Shown here in pieces: positions 1 through 5,694 of a stretch of DNA of 5,767 bases. Under the pieces are notes generated by a model that was not told the DNA's origin, did no database searches, and was given only the letters and a program-made list of their open reading frames with translations. Source of the DNA: Candidatus Iainarchaeum sp. (GTDB lineage Archaea; Iainarchaeota; Iainarchaeia; Iainarchaeales; CSSED10-239); contig JAQVRT010000032.1 in the NCBI GenBank assembly GCA_028700905.1, forward strand, positions 1-5,767, given 5' to 3'. The position numbers and the translations under genes are program-made. How positions within the stretch are numbered: position 1 is the stretch's first letter; the number at the start of each line of letters is the position of its first letter.

Positions 1-89
1 GTCAGAACCGCAATCTCCTGCTTGTAATGTATCTGTGTGTGTGAAACATCCACATGAGTCAGAACCGCAATCTCCTGCTTGTAATGTAT
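1..89. repeat. Interspaced direct repeat. Identical 32-nt copies at 1-32 and 58-89 are separated by 25 unrelated nt (57-nt period). Candidate CRISPR terminal repeat-spacer-repeat, or a coding cassette repeat.
   Basis: GTCAGAACCGCAATCTCCTGCTTGTAATGTAT occurs twice with no mismatch. Segment 33-57 has no similarity to 90-114. The repeat is GC-richer than the flanking AT-rich DNA. The first copy abuts the window edge, so further copies may lie outside. Confidence 0.9.
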
Positions 90-114
90 TTAAATTAAAA
101 TTTTCTATACTCAT
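1..114 (-). CDS. Partial CDS (N-terminal 38 codons, runs off the window) for a Cys-rich repeat-containing peptide or protein: MSIENFNLNTLQAGDCGSDSCGCFTHTDTLQAGDCGSD...
   Basis: The ATG at 114..112 is preceded by GAGGTTA (127..121) plus a 6-nt spacer. The eL40, eL41 and 5695 ORFs in this window share this SD geometry. The frame stays open to position 1. The 57-nt repeat period equals 19 codons. Third codon positions are mostly A/T, like the other genes. The competing interpretation is a CRISPR array, and plus-strand frame 2 is also open. Confidence 0.45.
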   Translation of the reverse strand, partial: MSIENFNLNTLQAGDCGSDSCGCFTHTDTLQAGDCGSD

Positions 115-208
115 GTTTTATAACCTCTTTATTTATTTTAATAATTTAAAAAATAGTTTTTAAAAATAAAATTAGTTTATTAAATTTGACTTATTTTAAA
201 ATTAATAT

Positions 209-236
209 CGCCTGTCAACTTGGCGAAAAGTTGAAG
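209..236 (-). repeat. Conserved 28-nt tRNA 3' trailer motif, copy A (CTTCAACTTTTCGCCAAGTTGACAGGCG on the minus strand), immediately after tRNA-Ala.
   Basis: It matches 5509-5536 on the opposite strand at 25 of 28 positions, with the first 18 nt identical. It starts at the base after the discriminator. It can fold as TCAACTT/AAGTTGA or as CGCC/GGCG hairpins. Confidence 0.85.
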
Positions 237-309
237 TGGACTCTGCGAGATTCGAACTCGCGGCCTCGTCCTTGCAAGGGACGCGCTCTACCAGCTGAGC
301 TAAGAGCCC
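237..309 (-). tRNA. tRNA-Ala(UGC): tRNA-Ala, anticodon UGC, 73 nt, no intron, CCA not encoded.
   Basis: Hand-folded cloverleaf: acceptor GGGCUCU/AGAGUCC with the G3:U70 alanine identity pair, D arm GCUC/GAGC, anticodon stem CGUCC/GGACG with loop CUUGCAA, T arm GCGAG-UUCGAAU-CUCGC, discriminator A. Confidence 0.95.
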
Positions 310-569: not shown

Positions 570-2064
570 AGGAGGTGATCCGTCCGCAGGTTCCCCTACG
601 GACACCTTGTTACAACTTAGTCTACCTCGCGAAATATAGAATAACTTTATCCTTTAGTAGAGTAAAGTTCATCAACACTCCACTCGGTTGGCTTGATGGG
701 CGGTGTGTGCAAGGCGCAGGGACATATTCACCGCGTGATAGTGACACGCGATTACTGGGGATTCCAGCTTCATGAGGGTGAGTTGCAACCCTCAATCCGG
801 ACTTAGACTAAGTTTTTGAGATTGCCACCCCTTTTCAGGTTAGATACTCTTTGTCTTAGCCATTGTATGCCGCGTGTTGCCCAGAACATTCACGCTATAC
901 AGACCTACCTTCGCCCACTCCTTCCTCATTGTTACCAATGCAGTCCTATTAGAGTGCCTTCTTTTGCAAGCAAAAAAAGTAGCAACTAATAGCATGGGTC
1001 TCGCCCGTTACCTGAGTTAACAGGAAGCTTCACAGTACGAGCTGACGATGGCCATACAGCAGTTCTCAGCGCATCAGGTAACCCCTTCAGAGTGACCATC
1101 ATATTGCTGTCAGCCCTGGTAAAATATCTGGCGTTTCATCCAATTAAACCGCAGCATCCACCCCTTGTAGTGCACCCCCGCCAATTCCATTAAGTTTCAG
1201 TCTTGCGACCATACTTCCCAGGCGGTGAATTTAATGGTTTCCCTTCGGCCCTGAGCTAACTCGTAGTTAACCCAACACCTAATTCACATCGTTTACGGCT
1301 GGGACTAACCGGGTATCTAATCCGGGTTGCGCCCCCAGCTTTCGTATCTCACTGTCGAATCCGTACTCGTTAAGCGCCTTCGCCACAGGTGGTCTTTTTA
1401 GTATCTTAAGATTCTACTCCTACTCTAAAAATACCCTTAACGTCTTCCGGTTCCTAGTCATGCCAGTATCTTTTGCAATTCAACTAGTTAGGCTAGCTGC
1501 GTTCACAAAAGACTTAACAAACCAGCTACACACGCTTTAAGCCAAATAATGCTGGATACCACTTGGGGATTACGTATTACCGCGGCGGCTGGCACGCATA
1601 TTGCCCTCCCCTTATTCACATAGTTATTCACACTATATAAAAGCTTACATAGTAAGCACTTGGAATCTCTTTATCACGATTTCTCGCATTGTAAAAGTTT
1701 CGTAACTGCTGCACCCCGTAGGGCTAGGGACATTATCTCAGTTCCCTTCTCCGGGCTCCCTCTCTCAAGGCCCGTACAGATCTTCGGCTTGGTAGGCAGT
1801 TACCCTACCAACAACCTAATCTGGCGCAGTCCCATCCTTTCGCGCCAAAGAAGCATGATTCTTTGACCTTTAAAATAGTAATCATTCCAGATTTACTTTT
1901 CTATAGAGCATTATACTCAGTTTCCCGAGTTTAACTCTTCAAAAGGGTAGGTTGACCACGTGTTACTGAGCCGTTCGCCAAAACCTCTCATAGCTGAGGC
2001 TTTAAGACTTGCATGTCTTAGTCAGATTCCAATAGCAGTATCCACCAGCAGGATCAGCTGGAAT
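570..2064 (-). rRNA. rrs: 16S (SSU) ribosomal RNA, archaeal type, complete, about 1495 nt, no intron.
   Basis: Read on the minus strand. The 5' end is AUUCCAGCUGAUCCUGCUGGUGG. GUGCCAGCCGCCGCGGUAA is at 1578-1596. GGAUUAGAUACCCGGUUAGUCC is near 1300-1323. The 3' end is ...GUAACAAGGUGUCCGUAGGGGAACCUGCGGACGGAUCACCUCCU. GC content is much higher than in the flanks. Changes in helix 45 are compensatory. Confidence 0.97.
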
Positions 2065-2967: not shown

Positions 2968-3023
2968 GAATTTTCGCCTTTAATTTTAATATTAATTTTT
3001 TTTTTCTTACCATATAAAGAAAA

Positions 3024-3097
3024 TGCTCTCGCCGGGATTCGAACCCGAGTCTCTGGCTTGAAAGGCCAGAATGATTACCGGACTACACCACAAGAGC
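3024..3097 (-). tRNA. tRNA-Glu(UUC): tRNA-Glu, anticodon UUC, 74 nt, no intron, CCA not encoded.
   Basis: Hand-folded cloverleaf: acceptor GCUCUUG/CGAGAGC (one G-U pair), anticodon stem CUGGC/GCCAG with loop CUUUCAA, T arm UCGGG-UUCGAAU-CCCGG, discriminator A. Confidence 0.95.
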
Positions 3098-3120
3098 ATA
3101 AAGTCTTTTAGATTAATTTA

Positions 3121-3130: not shown

Positions 3131-3314
3131 CTACAATAAAATAAGAAACATTATTTAGTAGTTTATAATATAAATAAGTAACGATTTATTTATATATTGT
3201 TTGTTTTTTCACTTCAGAGAAAAAACTCTTGTTTTAAATACCTTTTGTATGTTAAATATATAACATAATATATTAATATTTAGAACAATTTAAAAATTAT
3301 TAAGGTGAAATAAA

Positions 3315-3469: not shown

Positions 3470-4309
3470 TTATTTTCTTTTAATTGGTTTAAAAGTTTTT
3501 TTAGAATCTCTACTTTTTAAAAAATCATTTTGTTTAGAATCAAGAAGTCTTTTCTTCTTGATCTCAAAATTTTTTTCAAATTTTTCTTTTAACAGTCTTA
3601 AATCATTTTCTTGTTTACTAATTCTTTTTTTACTACCTTCTCTATAAATATTATCTAAAGAAATATTATCTAATTTAAGTCCAGCTTTAAGACCTGCTTG
3701 AATATATTGTCTTAACTGTCTTTGATATTGAGAAATTGTATATGTTGTTTTTAAAGGAAGTTCTAAAATTATATTATATTTATTTTTTTCAGCATAATTT
3801 TTTAACAAAGACACAACTTTAACTCTCCAATTTTCTTTAAGTTCTTTATTTAGTTTATCTATATAAACTCTATTTTTATCTAAAAGTTCAGCTCTATTAT
3901 TATTTAAATTATTACCAATATATCCTTGTATATTACTTATCCTTAAAGTAATTTTTTTAGAATTATCTATAGTAAAATAAATACCAAAAGTTGAAATAGT
4001 ATTTTTATTATAAGATATCTGATATTCAATAATTGATTCTGAATGTAAATTTTCAAAAGGATTTGCACGACTAACTTTAAATTTTTCATTTTTACCTAAA
4101 GTAAGTTCTTTAAGTTTATTTTTTTCAATAAAATTTAAATTGAATTTAAATGAATTTAAAATATCTTTTTTAGAATAGTTTGTATTCATTAAATCTATTA
4201 AATCATACAATACCCTAACTTCTTTTGCATTTAAGGAACGTCCAACATTATTTACAACATAATTTTTAACATCTAATTCATGAACCATAATAAATCTCTT
4301 TAAAACCAT
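3470..4309 (-). CDS. Hypothetical protein, 279 aa, with a lysine-rich C-terminal tail. Function unknown.
   Basis: A long ORF in a very AT-rich, stop-rich background, with codon usage like its neighbours. It lies directly downstream of FEN1 on the same strand. An alternative start at Met8 (4288) has an SD-like AAAGAGA plus 6 nt and removes the 10-nt overlap with FEN1. I recognise no motif with confidence. Confidence 0.7.
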   Translation of the reverse strand: MVLKRFIMVHELDVKNYVVNNVGRSLNAKEVRVLYDLIDLMNTNYSKKDILNSFKFNLNFIEKNKLKELTLGKNEKFKVSRANPFENLHSESIIEYQISYNKNTISTFGIYFTIDNSKKITLRISNIQGYIGNNLNNNRAELLDKNRVYIDKLNKELKENWRVKVVSLLKNYAEKNKYNIILELPLKTTYTISQYQRQLRQYIQAGLKAGLKLDNISLDNIYREGSKKRISKQENDLRLLKEKFEKNFEIKKKRLLDSKQNDFLKSRDSKKTFKPIKRK

Positions 4310-5343
4310 TTATCAATAGTTTTTTGTTTATTTGAATTGTTTCTAGCTGTAATAAACTTATCTAAACTATTAACAACTCTTTCTTGAGAAAAATTAAACC
4401 TATCTATTAATATATTTTCAATTTTATTACGATCAAACTCAGATTTACTTATTTCTGGATTTTTTGAAATTAGTGGATTTAAAAATATATTTTCAATTTC
4501 TTTATAATCAAAATTAACTACTTTATTTTTTTCTTTTAAACTTTTTTCAATATCTTCAAAACTATTATTTTCTAAAACTAGTTTTAAAGCAGTCTTTGGT
4601 CCAACACCTTCAACTTTATCATTAAAATCTGTTCCAATAAGCATTGAAAGATAAATTAATTTTTCTCTTGAAAGATTTAGTTTTTCTAAAGTTTCTTTAA
4701 GATAAATAATTTCAGGATTAATATCTACATATATATTTTTAGAAGGTATTTTTTTCTTTCTTGAAACAGTTAAATTTCTAACAAGATTTGGAGAACCAAA
4801 TAACAAACAATCAAAATCTTGTGAAACTGTAAAATCTAATAAATTTTCTTTAGTCATATAAGAAATTTGAGCTTCAGCTTCAGAAGGGGCATCTATTATA
4901 GAAATACCCATTGCTTTTAATAAATCTTTTGATTCTTGAATAATTTTATCATCAATTGAGGTTATTCTTTTTGAAAATTTATTCATATCTTCAAGATCCC
5001 CTCTTAAAACAGCATCTTTAAAATGTTCTTTTGCAATTTCTTTTCTAGATCTTCTTTCATCTTGTGTTTTTTGTTTTAAATCTATACTTTTCCCATCATA
5101 TACAAAAAAAACATCAACATCATTAGATAAAATGTTAAGCATCCTATAAAAAAGACCATTTAAATGGCTTGTAATATCACCATTTTCGTTCTTTAAAGGT
5201 TCTCCATCAACACCTCTAATTGTAGTTAAGAACTGATAAAGAATATTATATGCATCAAAACCAAATTTTTTATGTTTATGAGTATGATTAAACTCAAATT
5301 TCTGTTTTGATTCTTCTATTAGTTTTCCAATTGCAACTCCCAT
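4300..5343 (-). CDS. fen: Flap endonuclease 1 (FEN1), 347 aa.
   Basis: N-domain FDAYNILYQFL and VYDGK. I-domain APSEAEAQ and SQDFDCLLFG. H3TH region GTDFN...VEGVGPKTALKLV. The terminal PIP box is QKTIDKWF. The acidic active-site residues are all present. Confidence 0.95.
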   Translation of the reverse strand: MGVAIGKLIEESKQKFEFNHTHKHKKFGFDAYNILYQFLTTIRGVDGEPLKNENGDITSHLNGLFYRMLNILSNDVDVFFVYDGKSIDLKQKTQDERRSRKEIAKEHFKDAVLRGDLEDMNKFSKRITSIDDKIIQESKDLLKAMGISIIDAPSEAEAQISYMTKENLLDFTVSQDFDCLLFGSPNLVRNLTVSRKKKIPSKNIYVDINPEIIYLKETLEKLNLSREKLIYLSMLIGTDFNDKVEGVGPKTALKLVLENNSFEDIEKSLKEKNKVVNFDYKEIENIFLNPLISKNPEISKSEFDRNKIENILIDRFNFSQERVVNSLDKFITARNNSNKQKTIDKWF

Positions 5344-5436: not shown

Positions 5437-5508
5437 GCACTCGTAGTATAGTGGTTAGTATGTGAGCCTTCCAAGCTTAGGACTCGGGTTCGAATCCCGA
5501 CGAGTGCA
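5437..5508 (+). tRNA. tRNA-Gly(UCC): tRNA-Gly, anticodon UCC, 72 nt, no intron, CCA not encoded.
   Basis: Hand-folded cloverleaf: acceptor GCACUCG/CGAGUGC, D arm GUAU/GUAU (wobble pairs), anticodon stem UGAGC/GCUUA with loop CUUCCAA, T arm UCGGG-UUCGAAU-CCCGA, discriminator A. Confidence 0.93.
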
Positions 5509-5536
5509 CTTCAACTTTTCGCCAAGCTTGCAGGCG
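5509..5536 (+). repeat. Conserved 28-nt tRNA 3' trailer motif, copy B (CTTCAACTTTTCGCCAAGCTTGCAGGCG), immediately after tRNA-Gly.
   Basis: It is the inverted partner of 209-236 (25 of 28 identical, first 18 nt identical). It starts at the base after the discriminator. Confidence 0.85.
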
Positions 5537-5538
5537 TT

Positions 5539-5565
5539 GTTGACAAGCAAAGATGCTTAGTTAAC
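5539..5565 (+). other. Stable hairpin directly after trailer motif copy B.
   Basis: GTTGACAAGCA-AAGA-TGCTT(A)GTTAAC forms 11 bp (one G-U pair, one bulged A) with a 4-nt loop. It is unusually GC-containing for an intergenic region here. Confidence 0.5.
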
Positions 5566-5694
5566 AAGTATTATTTTATAATAATTAACAAGCATAAATT
5601 TAATTCTTTTTCTTCAACAAATATTTTTTATATCTAAAACAACTATTTATAAATATAATACTTTAGTAAATATTTATATAAAAGATGATTAAAT

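Follow-up and report, generated by a model that had tools for sequence, protein, structure and literature searches.

A putative hairpin module shared by the 3' trailers of tRNA-Ala and tRNA-Gly in a Candidatus Iainarchaeum lineage

We describe a 28-nt sequence module that follows two different tRNA genes, tRNA-Ala and tRNA-Gly, in a 5,767-nt stretch of DNA from Candidatus Iainarchaeum sp. (assembly GCA_028700905.1, contig JAQVRT010000032.1; hereafter the window). Comparison with related genomes shows that the Ala and Gly copies exchange sequence and that the module is dispensable, having been gained, lost and tandemly amplified among close relatives. We interpret the two copies as paralogous, lineage-specific trailer modules subject to concerted exchange, which may act as an RNA hairpin on the 3' trailer of the pre-tRNA; judging from the sequence comparisons, we give this interpretation a probability of roughly 45%. 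The feature is real and matches no curated RNA family; we class it as a trailer or terminator-like stem-loop of one lineage. Few lineages have it, strains differ in it and only a few copies were found, which makes it a local curiosity and not a conserved processing signal.

The Ala copy, at 236..209 on the minus strand, reads CTTCAACTTTTCGCCAAGTTGACAGGCG, and the Gly copy, at 5509..5536 on the plus strand, reads CTTCAACTTTTCGCCAAGCTTGCAGGCG. The two are identical at 25 of 28 positions, including the whole of the first 18 nt, with mismatches at motif positions 19, 21 and 22. Because Rfam ends tRNA-Ala at 237 and tRNA-Gly at 5508, both copies begin at the base after the discriminator A (we take tRNA ends from Rfam; the ARAGORN calls are one base longer). 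A search of the window for the 18-mer with up to three mismatches returned only these two sites, compared with a chance expectation of 0.01, and none of 200 shuffled sequences reached two matches. Same-strand open reading frames (ORFs) lie downstream of both copies. Three tRNA genes of the window genome were examined, and the trailer of the third, tRNA-Glu, is plain TTTTCTTT without the motif. An earlier reading of this DNA, the first-pass annotation, had reported the coordinates and sequence of the motif, the 25/28 match, the 18-nt identity, the start after the discriminator, the downstream ORFs and the absence from tRNA-Glu, and had considered the motif non-random; all of this agrees with the sequence and with Rfam. 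It was equally correct that the motif is neither a duplicated tRNA nor a classic attachment (att) site; the copies start after the tRNA, are inverted and have no integrase with them.

In the Ala trailer module (209..236, minus strand), the 5' arm TCAACTT (234..228), the loop TTCGCC (227..222) and the 3' arm AAGTTGA (221..215) are followed by the tail CAGGCG (214..209). The perfect 7-bp stem is the centroid fold, with an energy of -5.5 kcal/mol, and the copy scores 52.3 bits with our covariance model R1. Orthologues occur in L072, L073, L074, L085 and L127 (L-numbers are labels of syntenic loci or lineages related to the window), and their stem changes preserve pairing. The Gly trailer module (5509..5536, plus strand) consists of the 5' arm at 5511-5517, the loop at 5518-5523, the 3' arm at 5524-5530 and the tail at 5531-5536. 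It is a hybrid copy in which an Ala-type 5' arm (TCAACTT) stands opposite a Gly-type 3' arm (AAGCTTG), resulting in two stem mismatches, A6.C19 and C4.U21, and a score of 48 bits. The earlier claim that both copies can fold thus stands for the 7-bp stem, which shows compensatory changes in relatives, and has to be amended for the Gly copy, where two mismatches take the place of the "one bulged C".

Both trailers contain further related sequence. A probable decayed second unit of the Ala trailer, AGTCAAATTTAATAAACTAAT, lies at 171..191 on the minus strand and was aligned by eye with AAGTCAAGTTTACAAGCGAAT in L074 and AAATTAACAGGCGAT in L080, so that decayed second units appear in the Ala trailers of all three; the Gly trailer of L080 carries another, about 47 nt downstream. 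In some relatives the module is part of a repeat unit of about 45 nt. The Gly trailer of the window holds a second imperfect hairpin at 5537..5568 (plus strand), TTGTTGACAAGCA-AAGA-TGCTTAGTTAACAAG, recognized from its fold, from the alignment with L074 and from sliding identity. Together with 5520-5536 it forms a G+C-containing block of about 49 nt, extending from CGCC at 5520 to AACAAG at 5568. In the pairwise alignment L074 is without this block and has a T9 run in its place, after the shared CTTNNNCTTTT. A further TTAACAAGCA box is found at 5585..5594 (plus strand). Between 5540 and 5594 the Gly trailer contains three boxes of the form TTRACAAGYA, spaced 21 and 24 nt apart, two of which are the arms of the 13-bp imperfect hairpin at 5537-5568; these boxes are not conserved in L080. 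The more general pattern TTRACARGYR occurs four times in the window, the box at 5585..5594 being one of the four, each time inside one of the two trailers, where 0.22 occurrences are expected, an enrichment that is partly circular because the pattern was derived from these same sequences.

The distribution of the module was assessed in syntenic loci from about 12 lineages, which were fetched via exact window proteins and homologues of FEN1. Wherever the module is present, irrespective of locus and lineage, it starts 1-3 nt past the tRNA end and is oriented in the tRNA sense, which substantiates the suggested tie to tRNA 3' ends. The architecture is also shared across lineages and consists of a 7-bp stem, a 6-nt YYCGCC loop and a CAGGCG tail. 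Within the species of the window, the haplotype with the Ala-type stem TCAACTT/AAGTTGA at the Ala locus and the hybrid at the Gly locus, both with loop TTCGCC and tail CAGGCG, is represented by the window itself and, for Gly, by L078 and L079. L073, L076 and L077 have the same hybrid at Gly and differ at Ala by one C-to-U change in the 5' arm (TCAATTT), which yields a G.U pair. L072 and L075 are like the window at Ala and possess at Gly the perfect stem TAAGCTT/AAGCTTG with the same loop and tail. In L127 and L128 (16S identity 99.8%) this Gly-type stem, with the CAGGCG tail, occupies both loci, the loop being TCCGCC at Ala and TTCGCC at Gly. L074 (16S 99.93%, FEN1 96.8%) carries ACAACTT/AAGTTGA with loop CTCGCC and tail CACGCA at Ala and no module at Gly, where CTTTGAC is followed by T9. 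In L080 (16S 97.5%) the Ala copy pairs TAAGCTGG with TCAGCTTG around a TTTCGG loop and ends in CACCCA, and the Gly copy pairs TAAACTT with AAGTTTA around CTCGCC and ends in CAGACA. L085 (16S 96.9%) has four tandem 45-bp units at Ala, each comprising loop, 3' arm, CAGGCG and T5, and a T-run without a module at Gly.

Outside this group only T-runs were seen. L083 (16S 96.6%) and L089 and L092 (16S 93%) have T-runs and no module at either locus. In L087 (FEN1 83%) and in L131 and L132 (FEN1 75% and 74%) the Ala locus is not on the contig, and the Gly locus reads CTTAATC followed by T10 in the first and has T8 and T6, respectively, without a module in the other two. All lineages that have the module belong to a narrow clade of Iainarchaeota/Diapherotrites-like DPANN archaea whose 16S genes are at least 96.9% identical to that of the window. 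Of 11 lineages, 8 do without it after tRNA-Gly, as do 3 of 8 after tRNA-Ala; plain T-runs take its place, and it is never present in the tRNA-Glu trailers of the lineages examined. The Gly block is absent from L074, whose nucleotide divergence from the window is about 5%, and present in the more distant L127 (about 10%). The proposal of a conserved tRNA trailer or RNase Z module does not survive this comparison, given the narrow clade and the polymorphism between strains whose 16S genes are 99.8-99.9% identical.

Two observations concern the genes beyond the trailers. Just downstream of tRNA-Ala is a variable spot, where L127 (8988-10613) has two extra genes of 191 and 313 aa, without a Pfam match, between the cysteine-rich ORF described below and a DUF4013 gene; compared with L072 and L074, this insertion is limited to L127 and L128. 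Directly downstream of tRNA-Gly, a second HIT-family paralogue of 133-134 aa is found in L080 (9324-9728), L082 (9409-9813), L085 (4676-5077) and L087 (36-440); the species of the window has lost it, so that a different gene stands behind its Gly trailer.

The haplotypes just listed amount to four combinations of Ala and Gly copies within one species complex (16S identity at least 99.8%): Ala-type/hybrid as in the window, Ala-type/Gly-type as in L072, Gly-type/Gly-type as in L127, and Ala-type/none. The hybrid is not an assembly artefact, because it is present in seven independent assemblies besides the window (L073 and L076-L079; L056, which shows it too, is one and the same contig as L077). 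These patterns are most simply explained if the two inverted copies have undergone ectopic gene conversion over short tracts, in both directions. The 18-nt identity that drew attention to the motif is accordingly a haplotype-specific short conversion patch that weakens the Gly hairpin, and not a conserved core. The tRNA 3' halves and the module together form a 63-nt inverted repeat with 81% of positions matched, and conversion may be seeded where the tRNA-Ala and tRNA-Gly genes resemble each other, in their 3' halves. Seeding inside the tRNA part would automatically hold the module at a constant distance from the tRNA end. The Gly trailers of L072 and L127 are 99-100% identical over about 280 nt, compared with 93-97% for the flanking genes, and the whole locus is a recombination mosaic. 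In most genes of the locus L072 and L074 hardly differ (about 100% identity), but their identity drops to 76-92% across the 279-aa ORF (L072 10325-10925, roughly 3640-4240 of the window), which varies in length from 254 to 279 aa between strains and is absent from L082-L084, L089 and L092.

Four different stem sequences preserve pairing. The Ala-type stem TCAACTT/AAGTTGA is found at the Ala locus of the window and L085, and in L074 with an A.A mismatch at the outermost pair; the Gly-type stem TAAGCTT/AAGCTTG is found at the Gly locus of L072, L075 and L127 and at the Ala locus of L127; L080 has stems of its own. Across 10 distinct copies 90% of the cells pair, and two of the seven pairs change on both sides (C-G to A-U and A-U to G-C). 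Of 500 shuffles, 16 equalled the covariation score, and shifting the 3' partners by one to three columns abolishes it. The test for compensatory changes that the first-pass annotation had recommended comes out in favour of the stem, and the alignment suggests that the stem is maintained via compensatory changes. The wobble pairs (U7.G18 in L073, U3.G22, and a G.U in the Ala copy of L080) are G.U on the tRNA-sense strand only, which favours structure at the RNA level.

An alternative helix, CGCC-N9-GGCG, had been put forward as a second fold common to both copies. In a 9-sequence alignment it is invariant or broken and never compensated, and it is broken in L074 and in the Gly copy of L080, so we do not retain it as a conserved feature. 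GG/CC swaps in the Ala variant of L080 would keep two or three of its pairs, and a weak alternative fold of this kind keeps a small residual probability. A pseudoknot that combines the stem with CGCC/GGCG was rejected: the linker is only 2 nt long, which is too short to span a 7-bp stem, and the second helix is broken in the same two relatives.

What the module might do is suggested by its location. On one side it has a stable-RNA gene, on the other the TATA-like box TTTTTAAAAAC that belongs to the following gene. Folded as an RNA hairpin in the 3' trailer of the pre-tRNA, it could help to form or protect the 3' end, and it could insulate the downstream promoter from read-through out of the heavily transcribed stable-RNA gene. 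In relatives the T5-T10 run right after the tRNA would fill the same role. Module-less trailers have T4-T10 within about 15 nt of the tRNA end, and module-bearing trailers have just T2-T4 there. In the latter the next T-rich stretch follows the module, as T5 at +1 in L085, T7 at +3 in the Ala trailer of L080 and T5 at +8 in the Ala trailer of L127; overall, runs of T5 or longer lie 1-70 nt beyond the module. The hairpin interpretation is favoured by the fixed offset and orientation and by the structure-preserving stem.

Several observations weigh against it. The covariation evidence is suggestive and not conclusive because the sequences are few and related, and template-switch correction of quasi-palindromes could keep the arms complementary without any selection. 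Pairing is not strictly constrained, since the Gly stem of the window itself is damaged, and the fold energies of the hairpins are weak (-3 to -8 kcal/mol). A consensus terminator scan lists no site at 209-236 or 5509-5536, and the U-run after the module is inconsistent. Measured against a bacterial-type intrinsic terminator, the Ala-type stem has two G-C pairs where at least three are required, and the U-run does not come 0-2 nt after the stem, because CAGGCG comes first and T-rich runs follow 1-30 nt past the tail at lineage-variable distances. Moreover, termination in archaea relies on U-tracts and aCPSF1 and not on hairpins (PMC8716108, PMC7515710). We consider it doubtful that in this lineage the structured module replaces the oligo-T tract as a signal for stable-RNA 3'-end formation, termination or insulation, perhaps read by a protein and spreading from trailer to trailer by recombination that starts in the tRNA 3' halves; if true, this would be a type of hairpin- or factor-dependent terminator undescribed for archaea.

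Three further ideas about the module were tried and dropped. Paired with the 5' flank of the 16S gene or the leader of tRNA-Gly, the module reaches -14.0 kcal/mol, no better than shuffled sequence with its mean of -13.8 kcal/mol. No bulge-helix-bulge site (two 3-nt bulges separated by a 4-bp helix) occurs in any predicted trailer fold, and the leaders have no complement to the module. A replication origin with origin recognition boxes finds no orc1/cdc6 gene within 10 kb on either side.

Large sequence collections were searched as well. The exact 18-mer has 31 matches among 185,579 species genomes (one per prokaryotic species), all of them in bacterial DNA of higher G+C content (36-62%) without tRNA context, as expected by chance. 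In the JGI metagenomes it has 39 matches, two of which belong to this lineage (L036 and L056, both about 99% identical to the window and from its locus), the rest being attributed to chance. The matches within the lineage all lie after these two tRNA genes. The conserved core TCGCCAAGYTKRCAGGCG has 31 matches in IMG/VR, in DNA of 49-68% G+C without tRNA context, which we also take as chance, and a BLAST comparison of the tRNA-Gly region with GenBank phages matched the tRNA body only. Within the clade, a hairpin scan of about 150 kb and a search of 221 kb with covariance model R1 returned only the known copies; the model did recover the L127 Ala copy with 40 bits, although it had not been trained on it. 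Neither a tRNA gene nor a module is present in another 17 kb, taken from a 663-kb contig. In Rfam 15 no family matches the motif, whether at the gathering threshold or with E<=5; there is only a chance-level SpF41 match that covers the tRNA (22 bits, compared with a gathering score of 52). No described element of this kind was found in the literature, in line with the statement of the first-pass annotation that none was known.

The main rival to the hairpin interpretation is that the module is a neutral, functionless palindrome which arose in the tRNA-Ala trailer, was copied ectopically into the tRNA-Gly trailer, and has since been subject to conversion, hairpin-templated correction and random loss. 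The patchy distribution with its many absences, the decayed second units in the window, L074 and L080, the broken-stem hybrid and the weak fold energies all fit such an origin, and the tandem amplification in L085 resembles slippage between AAAACTT repeats. It is harder to see, on a neutral account, why G+C-rich islands survive in intergenic DNA of about 85-90% A+T, why the loop and tail are conserved across lineages at 97% 16S identity, why both stem types are perfect in most haplotypes, or why the Gly trailers of L072 and L127 are so much more alike than their flanking genes, and we regard neutrality as unlikely, though to be taken seriously. Mobility is less probable still. A miniature palindromic element, or the scar of an integrative element that targets tRNA genes, would explain the presence/absence polymorphism between near-identical strains, the tandem copies, the discrete indel of about 49 nt relative to L074 (which starts after CTTNNNCTTTT), the equal offset at two different tRNA genes, and perhaps the variable two-gene insertion downstream of tRNA-Ala in L127. 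Such an element should be dispersed, yet the clade scans (about 150 kb for hairpins, 221 kb plus 17 kb with the covariance model) revealed no further copies, and in both large collections the lineage has the exact 18-mer at these two loci and nowhere else; the neighbourhood has no transposase or integrase gene, IMG/VR and GenBank phages offer no relevant match, terminal inverted repeats and target duplications are absent, and core genes lie between the copies.

A DNA site for a protein is quite improbable in our judgement, whether the protein is a transcription factor that controls the genes downstream or, at the ends of stable-RNA units, a terminator protein of the roadblock type comparable to TTF-I/Sal-box or mTERF. 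A TTGACAGGCG-like box is directly repeated in both trailers, with four occurrences in the window and four perfect ones at 45-bp spacing in L085, and the CAGGCG box lies 5-11 nt upstream of the TATA-like TTTTTAAAAAC in L074, L127, L080 and L085. The half-sites, however, differ within one genome (CAACTT and AAGCTT), a pattern more easily reconciled with a structure than with a dimer that recognizes a sequence; L080 and the lineage of the window do not share the extra boxes, the downstream genes vary by lineage (the HIT paralogue or a 201-aa ORF), and a transcription factor site has no reason to keep a fixed offset from the tRNA end. Even lower odds apply to a trans-acting small RNA released from the trailer by RNase Z, or to a hairpin that serves as the 5' protective stem of a co-transcribed downstream mRNA. 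For these speak the start of the hairpin 2-3 nt past the expected RNase Z cut, the same-strand ORFs after both copies, and the complementarity of the 8-mer UUUUCGCC to GGCGAAAA in the ribosome-binding region of a 43-aa ORF (2971-2978). This pairing was rejected as a target interaction, since it shows no covariation and both relatives with the CUCGCC loop and lineages without the module keep GGCGAAAA; in addition, T5-T6 runs and TATA-like boxes between module and ORFs argue against co-transcription. The ribosome-binding region in question, AAAGGCGAAAA (2971-2978 reads TTTTCGCC on the plus strand), is conserved across lineages and, because it does not covary and is present without the module, is probably a mere Shine-Dalgarno variant. 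Finally, the inverted copies, with 7-bp inverted arms around a 6-bp spacer in 28 nt, superficially resemble the core of a tyrosine recombinase or dif site, and an inversion of the 5.3-kb segment between them had been envisaged. The opposite orientation is simply that of the two tRNA genes; the sites have different arms, and relatives have one site or none, or in one case four in tandem. All 11 independent assemblies with both tRNAs are colinear, so that the proposed synteny comparison revealed no inverted arrangement. No recombinase Pfam family was detected in the gene tables within 10 kb on either side or by direct Pfam scan of six neighbouring ORFs. Inversion is essentially excluded on account of this colinearity and the absence of a recombinase.

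The module can be compared with several known systems. It shares with archaeal oligo-T terminators, which act with aCPSF1/FttA (PMC8716108, PMC7515710), the place immediately after a stable-RNA gene; 8 of 11 lineages have plain T5-T10 exactly where the Gly module would be, and T-rich stretches also lie behind the module. The module itself has only T2-T4, and its stem, G+C-rich loop and CAGGCG tail are foreign to the known archaeal signal. Bacterial Rho-independent terminators, including the tandem ones at the ends of rRNA operons, are similar in that a stem-loop ends a heavily transcribed stable-RNA unit, and L085 even has its four tandem copies with U5 directly after CGCC...GGCG; they differ in that the module stem is A/U-rich and weak, its U-run is mostly not adjacent, the consensus scan is negative and the host is an archaeon. 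Repetitive extragenic palindromes and bacterial interspersed mosaic elements (REP/BIME), as well as repeats resembling miniature inverted-repeat transposable elements (MITE), are likewise short imperfect intergenic palindromes downstream of genes, with presence or absence between strains and tandem copies, whereas the module occupies two loci per genome, both at tRNA 3' ends, without dispersed copies or a REP-associated tyrosine transposase (RAYT) or other transposase in the DNA examined. The module adjoins the tRNA 3' end and has inverted arms around a short spacer, as att sites in tRNA genes do, but it starts after the tRNA, its copies are inverted and not direct, and no integrase, island or, within 10 kb on either side, recombinase Pfam family accompanies it, the genes between the copies being core genes (16S rRNA, FEN1 and ribosomal-protein genes). 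Small RNAs derived from tRNA trailers include 3'ETS-leuZ in E. coli and tRF-1 in eukaryotes; the module would similarly be released by pre-tRNA 3' processing and carries structure, but it has no convincing target and is dispensable between strains. Xer/dif sites of 28 bp also have inverted arms around a 6-bp spacer. They occur as a single site per replicon with conserved 11-bp arms, unlike the module, whose variable 7-bp arms differ between copies and which is present at two loci and in tandem, at two to five copies per genome, with none in close relatives.

The window belongs to A+T-rich archaeal DNA (the syntenic loci that contain it have a G+C content of 26-28%), and the nearest named relatives of its FEN1 are labelled Candidatus Iainarchaeum or Diapherotrites, from which we take the host to be a DPANN archaeon of that group. 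From left to right the genes are tRNA-Ala(UGC) (237..309, minus strand, discriminator A at 237; ARAGORN, and Rfam tRNA match of 71.7 bits), which is the last gene of a 16S-tRNA-Ala unit; the 16S rRNA gene (2064..570, minus strand); a HIT protein and the 43-aa basic ORF; tRNA-Glu (3098..3023, minus strand); a 50-aa ORF and the 279-aa ORF of unknown function; FEN1 (5343..4300, minus strand); and tRNA-Gly(UCC) (5437..5508, plus strand, discriminator A at 5508; ARAGORN, and Rfam tRNA match of 67.6 bits). No 23S gene follows the 16S gene, which means that the rRNA genes are unlinked. The 16S gene is flanked on both sides by the direct repeat TTTAAAAACTTACCT (minus strand, 516-536 and 2237-2257), which resembles a TATA box and may mark promoters. 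Its flanks also hold a long complementary pair, GATGTGGAAGA and TCTTCCACACATC (484-496 and 2127-2137), that looks like a 16S processing helix. In the spacer between the divergent tRNA-Glu and 50-aa ORF, a perfect 9-bp palindrome, ATAAATAAG and TTTATTTAT around TAACGA (3170-3193), is kept in every lineage checked, out to 93% 16S identity (L089), with the loop CAGCGA in L082 and L083. Its conservation far exceeds that of the trailer module, and it may be a shared bidirectional promoter or operator.

Directly downstream of the tRNA-Ala trailer lies a small cysteine-rich ORF, of which 1-113 (minus strand) are in the window and whose entire gene is found in L036 (5937..5782, minus strand). It encodes 51 aa in L036 and L072 (MNTENFNLNTLQAGDCGSDSCGCFTHTDTLQAGDCGSDSCGCSSHNEILMA) and is made of 19-aa (57-nt) tandem repeats with a CGSDSCGC motif, visible as direct repeats at 1-32 and 58-89 of the window. 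In L074 it is called at 70 aa, apparently with three repeats instead of two, and L085 has a divergent version. The ORF has no Pfam match; from its composition, the product could be a metal-binding peptide or a peptide precursor.

The findings also carry a warning, namely that an identical 18-mer shared by two loci may be a recent conversion patch and not a conserved functional core. As the evidence stands, the main value of the module is as a small, clear case of concerted evolution between two tRNA trailers in a reduced DPANN genome. Should the hairpin indeed contribute to 3'-end formation, it would follow that, in one species complex, stable-RNA genes of archaea can replace an oligo-T signal by a structured one, and the naturally occurring alleles, with module or with T-run, could serve directly as controls.

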